Shown: positions 1,948 to 33,056 of the stretch, piece by piece
Numbering within the stretch: position 1 is the first letter of the stretch
Layout: each line of letters opens with the position of its first letter
Assembly: GCA_964467035.1 (NCBI GenBank)
Contig: CAYXNX010000002.1
Location: 10,896 to 74,895 of the forward strand
Reading direction: 5' to 3'
Origin: Candidatus Woesearchaeota archaeon
Lineage (GTDB): Archaea > Nanobdellota > Nanobdellia > Pacearchaeales > GW2011-AR1
DNA length: 64,000 bases
Notes under the pieces: model-generated
Told to the model about the DNA's origin: nothing
Databases searched by the model: none
What the model saw: the letters and a program-made list of their open reading frames with translations, nothing else
Position numbers and translations under genes: made by a program

Positions 1948-2259
1948 ATAATTTCATACCATTCTTCTGGAATTATTTCGTTGTCAGGGCTAAGAGAGAA
2001 TAATTGTCCAATGGTTGGTAGGTTCCTGTAATAAAGTCATATTCAAATTTAGGTTGGTATTTTGTTTCTTGTTTTCTTGTTTCCATTTTTCCTCCGTTTA
2101 ATTTATTTAAGTTGCCACAAAGTATGTAATTAATTTAGAATTCAACTACACACTTTTGTGGTAGTTAGCAAGCTAGAAGTAACAGTTCTTTTGAAAAGTT
2201 AATTCTTTTTTGCATTGGATAATTAATTAAAAAGAGTTTATTAATTTTTGGGAAAATTT

Positions 2260-2412
2260 GGCTTTGTTGAAAATCTAAATTTTTATTTGTTTTTGATTTT
2301 ACATTTTCCCACTACAAGTTTCGACTTCGTCGAAAAACCCACCCTATATTCTACAGGAGTTTCCTAAACTTTTAGTAAAATCAAAAATTATCTTAACTTT
2401 TTCAACAAAGCC
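2260..2412. mobile_element. 153-bp MITE-like non-autonomous element, copy 1
   Basis: By eye it is identical to 31009-31161. The termini are inverted repeats (GGCTTTGTTGAAAA / TTTTCAACAAAGCC). It is flanked by a perfect 9-bp direct repeat, GGAAAATTT, at 2251-2259 and 2413-2421. Confidence 0.8.
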
Positions 2413-2445
2413 GGAAAATTTTTAAAGTTTTAAAACCTATTTTTT

Positions 2446-2616
2446 ATGGAAAGAAATTATGAGCTTAGTGCAGGAAAATGGAAGTTATTTATGAGTCCTG
2501 AAGAATACGAGGCATGGAGTGAAAGGTTTTATGATAAAGTTAAATCAGTGTTGGATAAACAAAAAGAAGCTAGGAGAAGGTCTGAAGAAGAGTCTATGAA
2601 ACATTATGTTGATTAA
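2446..2616 (+). CDS. Small hypothetical protein (56 aa), charged and helical
   Basis: An ATG-to-TAA ORF read by hand (MERNYELSAGKWKLFMSPEEYEAW...), below the ORF-track cutoff. No recognisable family. Confidence 0.3.
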   Translation: MERNYELSAGKWKLFMSPEEYEAWSERFYDKVKSVLDKQKEARRRSEEESMKHYVD

Positions 2617-27140: not shown

Positions 27141-29282
27141 ATGAAAAAAAGAAGTGAACTTACAAGTGCTCAAAAGGGAATTTTGGGAGCTATTGTTCTT
27201 GTTATTGTATTGGGGTTGGTTGGGGTTTTTTTGTTTAATGTTTTGATTGAAAAACCATTGCTTTCTCCTGAAAAAATTTTGGCTGGTCAAACTGAAGATA
27301 TTCGGTTGGATTTGGGAGAATCAAAAAATTTATCAATTAGTGGAAAAAATTATACTTTGAAGTATACTGATTCTGACTTTAATAATAATTGGGATTCTTC
27401 TGATGAAAATGCAATTTTTGTTTTGTGGGATGAAGAGGAAGTAGAGACTGTTTATTTTAATCAGGGTGATGATTTAGAATTTGAGGAAAATTTACCATTT
27501 AAGATTTTTGTTAAATCTGTTGTTCATAATACTTATACAGATAGGGTTACTTTGGAAATTACAAGTGGGGTATTTATTGAACCAGGTAGTTCTGAAAAAT
27601 TTGAAGTTGAAAAATCAAGTGAAGAAGCTTTGTTTTTTGGTGATGAAATCAAGTATTGGGTTTCACTTCCTTCTTCAGGCGATGAATTGAGGTTTGTTGA
27701 GTGGAGCGAATCTGGGGGAAAGATTACTAGTTCTAAGGAATTTCCGAAGTTTGAAAAAGGTTGTTTGAGTGTTAGAGAGGAGGGTTGGCCTATGGCTGTT
27801 TATTTGACTGAAGTTAACGATGAAAGTATTGAATTAGAAGTTTATAATAATGATTATGAAATTGAGGAATATTGTGAAGATGATAGAAATTGTTTTGATG
27901 AAAAATGTTTAGCTGGTTTTTGTGTTGGTAGTTCTAATGTAGATGAAAGTAAATTTCATGATATGGATAAAAATAGGGATTACAATATTGAACTTTCTGA
28001 ATTATCAAGGATTATTCAATTTCATAATTCTGAAGGGTATCATTGCCAAACTGGAACTGAAGAGGGTTATGCTCCTGGAGTTAATGATGGTAAGCAGGAG
28101 TGTGGAACTCATGATGCTGATTTAAATGGGGATTGGAAGATTAATGGAACAGAATTAAATAGGGTTATTGAATTTTTTGATGAGGGCTATTATCCTTCGG
28201 AGGAAACTAAAGATGGTTTTGAAATTGGAGAAGGAAATGATTGCGGAACTAATGATGAGTGTTCAGGCGGAGGTGTTTGTTTAAACGGTGTTTGTGTTCA
28301 AGGAGTTAATTTTGATTGTAGTTCTGATGATGTTTGTGGAGATAACGAGGTTTGTCAAAATGGGCACTGTATACTCCTTAGTTGTCCTTATACATTTGGG
28401 AGTGAATATCATAAAGCTGATTTGAATGGGGATTGGAAAATCGATGTTGGGGAATTGTTAAGGATTATTCAATTTCATAATTCTGAAGGGTATCATTGTA
28501 ATCCTGCATCTGAAGATGGTTATGCTCCAGGAGTTGATGATGATAGGCATATGTGTGGAACTCATGATGCTGATTTAGATGGGGATTGGAAAATTGATGG
28601 GGAAGAATTAAATAGGATTAGGGAGTTTAATAAGAATGGATTTAAGTATTGTCCTGAAGAAGATACTACTGATGGTTATTGTATAAGAGGGGGTGGAGAA
28701 GAAGGTGAAGGAGAAGGTGAACCCCCTAGTCCTGGAGGAGGTCCTTCTGGAGGAGGTCCTTCTGGAGAAGAAGATGATTGCGGAGATGGGATAGTAGATG
28801 AAGATGAAGAATGTGATGGGGATAATTTGAGTGGTAAAAGTTGTCTTGATTGGGGTTATGATAAGGGAACTCTTTCTTGTGATGAGGATTGTAATTTTGA
28901 TAGAAGGGGTTGTGGATATGAAGGAAGTGAAGGAGAAGGTGAAGGAGAAGAAGGAGAAGGGGAAGGAGAAGGGGAAGGAGAAGAACAATCTTATTGGTGG
29001 ATTCTTTATGTTGTTTTTGGTATTTTAATTATAGCTATAATTGCAGTAATTGTTTTTATAATCTTTTTTAGTAAAAAGGGTAAGGAGGGTTTTGGAAAAG
29101 GAAAATTATCTAAAGATAAACAAGATTTGGGTAAAAATAAATCAAATCAAAATGTTTCTTCAAAATCTTTGAAAGACCTGCCCAAAAATTCTGAAAAAAA
29201 ATCCTCTAAAAAAATTGTTAAAAAATCAAGGGATAAAGATTATAAAAACATAGGTCCAAAAATGAAGGATAATTTGGATTAA
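27141..29282 (+). CDS. Large surface/secreted protein, paralog B: signal anchor, four dockerin/EF-hand-like Ca-binding loops, Cys-rich modules, GE stalk, C-terminal TM anchor, Lys-rich tail
   Basis: The N- and C-terminal cassettes are near-identical to paralog A. Also DLNGDWKINGTELNRVIEFF-type loops and CGDGIVDEDEECDGDNLSGKSC. Confidence 0.7.
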   Translation: MKKRSELTSAQKGILGAIVLVIVLGLVGVFLFNVLIEKPLLSPEKILAGQTEDIRLDLGESKNLSISGKNYTLKYTDSDFNNNWDSSDENAIFVLWDEEEVETVYFNQGDDLEFEENLPFKIFVKSVVHNTYTDRVTLEITSGVFIEPGSSEKFEVEKSSEEALFFGDEIKYWVSLPSSGDELRFVEWSESGGKITSSKEFPKFEKGCLSVREEGWPMAVYLTEVNDESIELEVYNNDYEIEEYCEDDRNCFDEKCLAGFCVGSSNVDESKFHDMDKNRDYNIELSELSRIIQFHNSEGYHCQTGTEEGYAPGVNDGKQECGTHDADLNGDWKINGTELNRVIEFFDEGYYPSEETKDGFEIGEGNDCGTNDECSGGGVCLNGVCVQGVNFDCSSDDVCGDNEVCQNGHCILLSCPYTFGSEYHKADLNGDWKIDVGELLRIIQFHNSEGYHCNPASEDGYAPGVDDDRHMCGTHDADLDGDWKIDGEELNRIREFNKNGFKYCPEEDTTDGYCIRGGGEEGEGEGEPPSPGGGPSGGGPSGEEDDCGDGIVDEDEECDGDNLSGKSCLDWGYDKGTLSCDEDCNFDRRGCGYEGSEGEGEGEEGEGEGEGEGEEQSYWWILYVVFGILIIAIIAVIVFIIFFSKKGKEGFGKGKLSKDKQDLGKNKSNQNVSSKSLKDLPKNSEKKSSKKIVKKSRDKDYKNIGPKMKDNLD

Positions 29283-30427: not shown

Positions 30428-31006
30428 ATGGGTGATTTAGGAAATAAATTTTCAATTATTCAAGAATTGGAAATTGTTGAGGTTTTTACACGTTTTGAAA
30501 CTGCTAATAAGTATAATGTTTTGGATGAGTCAGGAAATAAGGTTTTTTATGCTTATGAAGACGATACTGGTTTTATTGGGAAACAATTTTTAAAAAGTAG
30601 GAGAAGTTTAAAGTTACATATTTTGGATGAAAATCAAAAGGAATTATTTGTTGTGGATAGACCTTTTTTCTTTATGAAATCCAAGGCAAATATTTTTATG
30701 GGAAATGAAAAAACTGGAAAAGTTAAACAAACTAAAGCTATTGGAAATAAAAAATTTGATTTTATTTCTAATGAAGGAAGAGTTATTTTTTCTTGTGTTT
30801 CAAAATTGCCTCATCTTTGGACTTTTAAAGTTATGAAAGATGGATATCATATTGCAACTATTTTGAAAAAGTGGAGAGGGGGGCAAGAAGTAATAAGTGA
30901 TGCAGATATGTTTGATGTTGAGTTTCATTATCAACTTGATGACTCTATGAAAATTTCGATTTTGATTTGTGCATTTATAATTGACTTGAGAGTTTTTGAA
31001 AGCTAA
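30428..31006 (+). CDS. Phospholipid-scramblase / LOR (tubby-like fold) family protein
   Basis: LEIVEVFTRFETANKYNVLDESGNKVFYAYED...SLKLHILDENQKELFVVDRPF resembles the scramblase family core. Confidence 0.55.
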   Translation: MGDLGNKFSIIQELEIVEVFTRFETANKYNVLDESGNKVFYAYEDDTGFIGKQFLKSRRSLKLHILDENQKELFVVDRPFFFMKSKANIFMGNEKTGKVKQTKAIGNKKFDFISNEGRVIFSCVSKLPHLWTFKVMKDGYHIATILKKWRGGQEVISDADMFDVEFHYQLDDSMKISILICAFIIDLRVFES

Positions 31007-31008
31007 CC

Positions 31009-31161
31009 GGCTTTGTTGAAAATCTAAATTTTTATTTGTTTTTGATTTTACATTTTCCCACTACAAGTTTCGACTTCGTCGAAAAACCCACCCTATATTC
31101 TACAGGAGTTTCCTAAACTTTTAGTAAAATCAAAAATTATCTTAACTTTTTCAACAAAGCC
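31009..31161. mobile_element. 153-bp MITE-like element, copy 2
   Basis: By eye it is identical to 2260-2412. It is flanked by the 9-bp direct repeat AAGCTAACC (31000-31008 and 31162-31170). Confidence 0.8.
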
Positions 31162-31288
31162 AAGCTAACCAACAAGTTTTTAAATAATATTTTATTAGTA
31201 AAAAGATGGAATCAAAAGGGGGTTCGATACTGTTATTATTAGTGGAATTTTAACAGCTATTGGAGCTTTTATTGTTTTAGTTATTGGG

Positions 31289-31829: not shown

Positions 31830-31991
31830 ATTCTTCATAAATTGTTGAAGATTTTGAGAAAAGAAAAATATATAAACGTTTTTTTTTTCAATAGGGTATG
31901 AAAATTTTAAAAAATTGGGTGAGAGTTAAACTAAGGGTTTTTCACTCATTTGATAAAATTTAAGTTATATCAACTGAAAGGAGGTGATGAA

Positions 31992-33056
31992 ATGAAAGAT
32001 ACAAAAAAGAAGAATTTGATTGTTGTTGTTTCTGTTTTGGCGATTGTGTTGGTGGCTTTGGGTTTGACGTATTTTTTTAATTTTGGTCCGCAGTTGAGTC
32101 CAGGTTCTTCAAATCCAGGTGGTTGGAATTATTGTAAGAATAATCCTTGTAATGCTGGAGAGGGGGATTGTGATGGAGATGGAGAGTGTGCTGAAGGAGA
32201 GTGTGTTAATAATGTTGGGGGAGTTTATGGATTTTCTAAATGGGCAGATGTTTGTGAATTGAAGAGAGAAATACCTTGTGGAAATTATGGAGATGTTGAT
32301 GGCGATGGTTGGGTTACAACTAGGGATTCACAGTTAATTCTTAATTTCTTATCAGATGAAGATTTAATTAATAGAGTAAATGCAGATGTTAGTGGAGATG
32401 GCGAAGTAAATGGAGTCGATGCATGGTTTATTAGAGAATATCTTAAGGATGCAAGATCTCCTTTGCCTGTTTGCGGGGGTGAAGAGTCTGATTTGAGAAA
32501 GGTTTTAGGCCTCGGAGATTCTTTTACTCAGGATGGTAAATCTTTTTGGGTGGATCTTATTGGAGAAAATACAGCAAGGATAAATGGCGAGACTATTAAT
32601 GAAGGATCTTCAAAAATAGTTGATGGTGTGAAAATAAAACTTGTTAAGGTTTATTGGAATAACTCTAAAGAAAAATCAGTGCTTCTAGAGGTTAGTGAAA
32701 GTGAAAGTTCCGGAGATTCTGGAGGTTCTGGAGGTTCTGAAGAAGTGACTTATGAAGGAGTTTTGGAGATGTTGGGCCAATGTAATTGGGCATCAATAGC
32801 TATTGGGACAAATGATTCAGCTACTTCTTGTAATGAAGCTTGTGCTCCTCACAAATGTATTGGGGGGATGGCTCTTCTTCAATATGAATTTGCAACCGGA
32901 GAAAATATAGATCAAATGGAACTACTAACTTATCCAATTTCTTGTGGAGACAATTTGGTTCAATTTAATTCAGATTTACAAGAGGGATTTAGTTCAACAA
33001 TTCCTACAACTCTTGAAACCGATGTACTTTGTCATTGTTGTTCAGCCCCTAACTAA
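31992..33056 (+). CDS. Secreted/anchored protein with a canonical dockerin (two EF-hand-like repeats) and Cys-rich regions
   Basis: GGAGGTGA lies 5 nt upstream of the ATG. Signal anchor LIVVVSVLAIVLVALGL. Dockerin reads DVDGDGWVTTRDSQLILNFL ... DVSGDGEVNGVDAWFIREYL. Confidence 0.7.
   Translation: MKDTKKKNLIVVVSVLAIVLVALGLTYFFNFGPQLSPGSSNPGGWNYCKNNPCNAGEGDCDGDGECAEGECVNNVGGVYGFSKWADVCELKREIPCGNYGDVDGDGWVTTRDSQLILNFLSDEDLINRVNADVSGDGEVNGVDAWFIREYLKDARSPLPVCGGEESDLRKVLGLGDSFTQDGKSFWVDLIGENTARINGETINEGSSKIVDGVKIKLVKVYWNNSKEKSVLLEVSESESSGDSGGSGGSEEVTYEGVLEMLGQCNWASIAIGTNDSATSCNEACAPHKCIGGMALLQYEFATGENIDQMELLTYPISCGDNLVQFNSDLQEGFSSTIPTTLETDVLCHCCSAPN

Follow-up and report, generated by a model that had tools for sequence, protein, structure and literature searches.

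A 153-bp MITE with 9-bp target-site duplications in a Pacearchaeota genome and its probable ~880-bp IS903-type partner

Two sequences of 153 bp that are identical throughout (100% identity over 153 bp) lie almost 29 kb apart in the window, i.e. the whole stretch of 64,000 nucleotides analysed here, and raise the question of what kind of element they represent, how it multiplied and which enzyme could have moved it. A first-pass annotation had read them as copies of a recently active, non-autonomous MITE spread by DDE-type transposition, with its transposase encoded elsewhere. The host belongs to the Pacearchaeota group of DPANN archaea, and genes neighbouring the element are archaeal, e.g. Alba. 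The assembly that contains the window is a draft metagenome-assembled genome of 761,617 bp in 19 contigs, with 30% GC and 87% completeness. Genomes of this DPANN lineage are smaller than one megabase, and mobile DNA is considered scarce in them.

A count of copies over the whole assembly revealed a third identical copy on the minus strand of another contig. The coordinates of all copies and of their parts are given in Table 1. Each copy ends in perfect 14-bp terminal inverted repeats (TIRs), GGCTTTGTTGAAAA at 2260-2273 of copy 1 being the exact reverse complement of 2399-2412. The first-pass annotation had described these repeats as continuing imperfectly to about 40 bp. A second repeat is indeed present inside the TIR, but the two are really separate perfect blocks: beyond an unmatched stretch that follows the TIR, TTTTTGATTTTAC pairs with GTAAAATCAAAAA over 13 bp without mismatch, at an offset of 5 nt. 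The centre holds the predicted hairpin TTTCGAC-TTC-GTCGAAA with a 7-bp stem, and the 153-bp element folded as single-stranded DNA gave z = -6.15 against shuffles. In agreement with the claim that it has no coding capacity, no ORF reaching 40 aa overlaps the element. When positions 2200-2480 were compared with Rfam, no match reached a gathering score, and the hits below it were at chance level.

Table 1. Positions of the 153-bp element, its parts and related features. Positions without a prefix refer to the window.
Feature	Position	Strand	Remarks
Left target-site duplication, copy 1, GGAAAATTT	2251-2259	.	same 9-mer at 2413-2421
MITE copy 1, 153 bp	2260-2412	+	+ strand runs from B end to A end; identical to the other two copies
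B-type terminus GGCTTTGTTGAAAATCT	2260-2276	+	14-bp TIR plus 3 diagnostic bases; matches transposase-distal IS end GGCTYTGTTGAAAATCT
Subterminal repeat, left arm, TTTTTGATTTTAC	2290-2302	+	perfect complement of 2375-2387
Conserved core module	2302-2351	+	covariance model R1, 60.1 bits; stem covariation
Core box TCCCACT	2307-2313	+	
Core hairpin, 7-bp stem, TTC loop	2319-2335	+	
Core box ACCCACCCT	2337-2345	+	
Subterminal repeat, right arm, GTAAAATCAAAAA	2375-2387	+	
A-type terminus, reverse complement GGCTTTGTTGAAAAAGT	2396-2412	-	matches transposase-proximal IS end GGCTYTGTTGAAAAAGT
Right target-site duplication, copy 1, GGAAAATTT	2413-2421	.	
56-aa ORF, neighbour outside the element	2446-2616	+	no Pfam match; also a gene call in the Logan assembly
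Left target-site duplication, copy 2, AAGCTAACC	31000-31008	.	includes TAA stop of scramblase-family gene 30428-31006
MITE copy 2, 153 bp	31009-31161	+	orientation as copy 1; core module 31051-31100
Right target-site duplication, copy 2, AAGCTAACC	31162-31170	.	
MITE copy 3, duplication GTTAAATTA	G000:C1:86231-86383	-	identical to copies 1 and 2
Resident two-ORF IS5/IS903-group IS, ~1.25 kb	G000:C1:~92909-94158 (L004 857-2106)		290-aa transposase plus divergent 84-aa ORF

Perfect 14-bp TIRs and a 9-bp target duplication are found at 3/3 copies, which are distributed over two contigs, and the duplicated 9-mer is perfect and different at each of the three sites, as expected for DDE-type transposition rather than segmental duplication. 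A shared 30-mer is not expected by chance, with 0.00 occurrences in shuffles of the window. Identical copies could also arise by segmental duplication or gene conversion, or as an assembly artefact, and the perfect identity of all three in a metagenome-assembled draft speaks for such an origin. A check of the flanks, however, showed that the identity between copies ends exactly at the element ends, with no extended flank match. Both flank-element junctions of copy 1 were moreover recovered from Logan contigs of SRR11308339, an independent assembly; among the archaeal genes on the matching contig, domains of ribosomal protein S17e and of a tRNA-splicing endonuclease were recognised. The private 9-bp duplications together with these independently assembled junctions speak against a segmental duplication or an assembly artefact, as do homologous elements with duplications of their own in many genomes, and we regard such an origin as practically excluded and as the least probable of the alternatives considered. 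The Logan contigs break 30 nt inside copy 1, which is how a repeat behaves in a k=31 graph. In practical terms, the element flags contig breaks and is usable as a strain marker.

The annotation's reading of the element as recently active received indirect support only. The three copies show zero differences, whereas a sister subfamily of 139-141 bp with termini GGCTCTGGTGAAAC, found at 11 distinct sites in the MAG of a congener, Candidatus Pacearchaeota archaeon CG10_big_fil_rev_8_21_14_0_10_30_48 and in 18 metagenome contigs, has copies that are 79-99% identical (mean 92%). Against this divergence, the lack of any difference suggests that the 153-bp subfamily spread recently. No empty site was found: in a DNA search of 20 congeners for orthologous sites nothing aligned except the MITE itself, and exact-protein look-ups of the flanking genes returned nothing, or only SRR11308339 with the same insertion.

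To which family of insertion sequences do these ends belong? Among the families proposed on the basis of a 9-bp duplication, the IS5/IS903 group fits. The published inverted repeats of IS903B, left and right, are GGCTTTGTTGAATAAATC, and its direct repeat is 9 bp long (PMC10569121). On a Klebsiella plasmid, an IS903B copy of 1057 bp displayed the termini GGCTTTGTTGAATA, of which 13/14 positions are identical to the MITE sequence GGCTTTGTTGAAAA; the latter opens with GGC and resembles the IS903 inverted repeat. The likeness to IS903/IS903B thus comprises the termini (GGCTTTGTTGAA.A, 13/14) and the 9-bp target duplication, and it extends to a clade of ~880-bp ISs, described below, whose DDE transposase has the IS903-type NF033579 as its best model, albeit with scores borderline at the cut-off. 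There are also clear differences. IS903 and IS903B are enterobacterial, whereas the MITE is non-coding, measures 153 bp and resides in a DPANN archaeon whose genome has a GC content of 30%. The candidate partner IS has about 880 bp and a transposase of 260-264 aa, compared with 1057 bp and 307 aa for IS903B, and its transposase shows no detectable PF13737 N-terminal domain and only ~22% identity to that of IS903B. ISs of the IS903 group are about 950-1150 bp long (ISfinder range), and at 879-888 bp the candidate partner copies lie outside this range. Taken together, the comparison of termini and duplication length supports the assignment of the MITE family to the IS903 group of the IS5 family. 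Between Enterobacteria and DPANN archaea, the IS903 terminal sequence has been kept almost base for base.

A search with the terminus pattern GGCTTTGTTGAAWA detected occurrences in 52/401 sampled genomes of the order, at no fewer than about 90 places among the matches listed, compared with about 14 places for the reversed control pattern in the 401 genomes. Paired occurrences correspond to MITEs of 83-324 bp, most of them with 9-bp duplications. MITEs with GGCTTTGTTGAAAA ends in other genomes (L077, L125, L129, L138, L074-L079) often contain extended stretches rich in C on their B-to-A strand, e.g. CCCCAACCTCCGTCCCCCAACCACCCACCC, which are striking at ~30% GC; the opposite strand is G-quadruplex-prone.

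The assembly itself contains a single PF01609 transposase gene, located ~6.5 kb from copy 3. Its product of 290 aa combines PF13737 with PF01609 and scores 197 bits on the IS903-type model NF033579. The gene lies in an IS with degenerate ends (TGGATTGTTGCACGAT, TGCTCTGTTGCATGAT) and a flanking 8-bp repeat (TATTAGTT); no Pfam match is on record for its small divergent ORF. The DPANN clade to which this transposase belongs is large, with >1100 homologues, often on stand-alone metagenome contigs of ~1.28 kb; its members have a length of 1.28 kb, a second divergent ORF of 84-92 aa and the consensus terminus TGCTGTGTTGCATGAT. The best plasmid match of the resident transposase was an IS5 element of Sulfolobus islandicus (33% identity). 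No transposase fragments were found at contig ends of this genome. On a contig of GCA_964642575.1 (L056), a transposase gene with 93% identity to the resident one adjoins a second, different gene with a weak DDE_Tnp_1 match, which hints at a region rich in ISs in a related organism.

Cross-mobilisation of the MITE by this resident enzyme deserves attention, as it is the only PF01609 transposase of the assembly, has the IS903-type domain composition, is encoded by an intact ORF within an IS with imperfect terminal repeats, and the termini of this IS have GCT.TGTTG in common with the MITE. Its clade terminus TGCTGTGTTGCATGAT, however, matches the MITE at 9/14 positions only, and the differences fall at positions 11-16. 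Derbyshire and Grindley reportedly located positions 11-16 of the IS903 repeat within its transposase-binding part. The resident transposase was rejected as the partner on the basis of this terminus, and with a better candidate at hand, an IS clade that matches both MITE ends at 17/18 positions, we consider cross-mobilisation unlikely.

This better candidate came from related genomes, where a longer element of the kind that the first-pass annotation had proposed to look for, with the same termini and a transposase ORF, was found. An 884-bp IS at G123:C11:7065-7948 (L067 501-1384) is bounded by perfect GGCTTTGTTGAAAA ends, and its ORF of 264 aa encodes a DDE transposase with a PF01609 match (1.5e-18). 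Its best NCBIfam model is NF033579 with 143.9 bits (cut-off 140); transposases of the clade reach 139.9-143.9 bits on this model, borderline at the cut-off, compared with 350.9 bits for the IS903B transposase. The motifs AVDSTG, GDSAYD and YHQRSKIEAGFGSLK can be read in the transposase sequence. Homologues with 48-62% identity occur in about 16/401 genomes, nearly all in the taxonomic family of the host. Full IS copies (n=8, from 8 genomes) measure 879-888 bp, and 5/8 are bracketed by perfect 9-bp duplications. The leader of the 884-bp copy can form a hairpin with a GAGGTGA ribosome-binding site in the loop and the start codon in the stem (clade copies: L087-L095).

The two ends of this IS differ from each other. 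Upstream of the gene the end reads GGCTYTGTTGAAAAAGT (AAAAAGT) in 6/8 copies and AAAATGT in 2/8, and downstream of the gene it reads GGCTYTGTTGAAAATCT (AAAATCT) in 8/8. The MITE possesses exactly one A-like and one B-like end (GGCTTTGTTGAAAAAGTT, GGCTTTGTTGAAAATCTA), as do most sister MITEs, so that the left/right asymmetry at positions 15-17 is common to the MITE and the ~880-bp IS clade. As judged from sequence comparison, this asymmetry is the strongest link between the two and marks the ~880-bp IS clade as the likely mobiliser of the MITE. Past the first 17-18 bp, no similarity between MITE and IS ends was apparent by eye, and a simple internal deletion in any of the IS copies compared would not give the MITE.

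An autonomous IS with the termini and the duplication length of the MITE is present in other genomes only. The proposal that the partner transposase lies outside the window holds, and the cognate type is absent from the whole assembly too: tblastn of the 264-aa transposase against this genome gave only a 25%-identical match, namely the resident transposase, and fuzzy terminal-repeat searches and BLAST detected neither a longer element nor further full or partial copies in it. The ~880-bp IS is also missing from all 14 other sampled genomes of the host genus and from most other terminus-rich genomes (G169, G140, G074, G266, G241). That MITE-rich genomes are mostly orphaned in this way weakens an argument from co-occurrence of MITE and transposase. 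Searches of viral contigs detected neither the 264-aa transposase nor MITEs with GGCTTTGTTGAAAA-type ends nor the core module described below.

Against the rivals we set a reading to which we assign a probability of roughly 85%: the 153-bp MITE would be a non-autonomous element of the IS5/IS903 group, moved in trans by the transposase of the ~880-bp IS clade, the source of which is unassembled or lost. A DDE transposase, presumably the 260-264-aa enzyme of the ~880-bp IS that other genera of this family carry, would bind the two termini of 17-18 bp, GGCTTTGTTGAAAAAGT (A) and GGCTTTGTTGAAAATCT (B), and excise or copy the MITE by a putative cut-and-paste or copy chemistry. Insertion with staggered cuts 9 bp apart, followed by repair of the stagger, would give rise to the 9-bp duplications. 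The three identical copies would represent a recent burst; as the ~880-bp IS is absent from an assembly that is 87% complete, the transposase source of this burst may have escaped assembly or may already be lost.

The interior of the element revealed a second feature. BLAST detected relatives of the MITE in 15/401 genomes of the order, from 11 genera, and in many of these the alignment covers the interior but not the ends, e.g. 88% identity over positions 33-90. MITE interiors that are conserved at least as well as the ends are unusual. The conserved module spans ~45 nt and consists of a box (T)TCCCACT, a spacer of 3-5 nt, a hairpin of 7 bp and a box (A)ACCC[AG]CCCT. The three basal T:A pairs of the hairpin are nearly fixed, the upper four pairs are variable and the loop is mostly TTC. 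A covariance model of the 50-nt stretch detected the module in 20/401 genomes from 12 genera, all in the family of the host, with 1-8 copies per genome; in the genome studied here the matches are exactly the three MITE copies. In an alignment of 41 distinct sequences, 98.6% of stem cells are paired, with changes on both sides in 6/7 pairs and 45 doubly changed cells, compared with 7.5 ± 2.3 in shuffles. When the partner columns were slid, pairing fell to 43-63%. The alignment of the 41 sequences was fitted to the covariance model, and a MAFFT alignment of 14 sequences agrees with it. The module was found within MITEs of at least four terminus kinds, i.e. GGCTTTGTTGAAAA, GGCTCTGGTGAAAC, GGCTCTGTCYAGAAT and GCAGTATCTYCG (L140-L168 and others).

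A module with a covarying stem that is conserved across MITEs of different termini could also be taken to mean that the elements spread via the central hairpin, acted on by an enzyme specific for single strands such as a Y1/HUH transposase (REP/RAYT, IS200 type) or by an Xer-linked cassette system, with the TIRs being incidental. This we hold to be highly improbable, because the three copies and most relatives have exact boundaries at the TIRs with 9-bp duplications, full copies of the ~880-bp IS with the same ends contain no hairpin module, and no CTGTTA core can be read in the MITE sequence. Y1 and tyrosine-recombinase systems are not known to yield TIR-bounded 9-bp duplications. REP/BIME sequences and their RAYTs resemble the module in that short hairpins are scattered over the genome and combine a variable stem with conserved flanks, but REPs have neither TIRs nor target duplications and the 153-bp element has both, which rules out an identity as a REP/RAYT-type hairpin repeat.

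With transposition from the termini as the preferred reading, we tentatively propose, at somewhat less than even odds, that the ~45-nt core is a functional module kept by MITE lineages of this archaeal family under element-level selection, while their termini are exchanged. It could possibly serve as a site for a host protein or as an extrudable hairpin, bending the ~150-bp element so that its ends synapse; alternatively, acting as a structured RNA or as a terminator, it might render insertions beside genes tolerable. Two ordinary alternatives are plausible, namely common descent with recent horizontal spread, and quasi-palindrome correction. In quasi-palindrome correction, changes are copied between the arms of a palindrome by mutation, without selection. 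With crude ORF calls, the module ran in the same direction as its left neighbour in 14/24 cases (p = 0.54) and as its right neighbour in 17/23 (p = 0.035, uncorrected), a hint too weak to be relied on. A covarying module in MITEs with different ends provides a test case for selection on MITE interiors and, if true, a functional core would add selected 'cargo' of a new kind to prokaryotic MITEs.

Correia elements of Neisseria are MITEs with a functional internal host-factor site; they duplicate TA and bind IHF. The element described here resembles them as a MITE of ~150 bp with a conserved, functional-looking interior site besides its terminal repeats, but differs in its 9-bp duplication, its archaeal host and an internal covarying hairpin between C-rich boxes. 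In archaea, the Sulfolobus MITEs SM1-SM4 are, according to what is reported of Redder et al. 2001, mobilised in trans by resident IS elements. Like these and like the archaeal MITEs in a census of prokaryotic MITEs (PMC11602168), which counts DPANN genomes among the MITE-densest, the 153-bp family is short, non-coding and mostly intergenic, with the termini and the duplication length of an IS family. MITEs in archaea are already known, and the 153-bp family joins this known kind, the conserved core being a feature apart. The searchable literature contained no description of the 153-bp MITE family, the ~880-bp IS or the conserved structured core. An active-looking MITE family is hereby documented in Pacearchaeota together with a probable autonomous partner, the ~880-bp IS903-type element.

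All three copies occupy intergenic positions. Copy 1 is located 328 bp past an MscS-family gene and 33 bp ahead of the 56-aa ORF, copy 2 immediately after a scramblase-family gene, and copy 3 immediately after a ParE-like toxin gene, adjoining a nucleotidyltransferase gene. At 2/3 insertions the stop codon of the upstream gene falls within the duplicated 9-mer (31000-31008, scramblase-family; L003 1654-1662, ParE-like toxin), and for this reason the element starts 2-5 nt past the stop at copies 2 and 3. The three copies have the same orientation relative to their flanking genes. On either side of copy 2, positions 27141-29282 and 31950-33056 encode large proteins that look secreted; they contain segments rich in Cys as well as repeated DxDGDWKI/DVNGD motifs, which are dockerin- or EF-hand-like.
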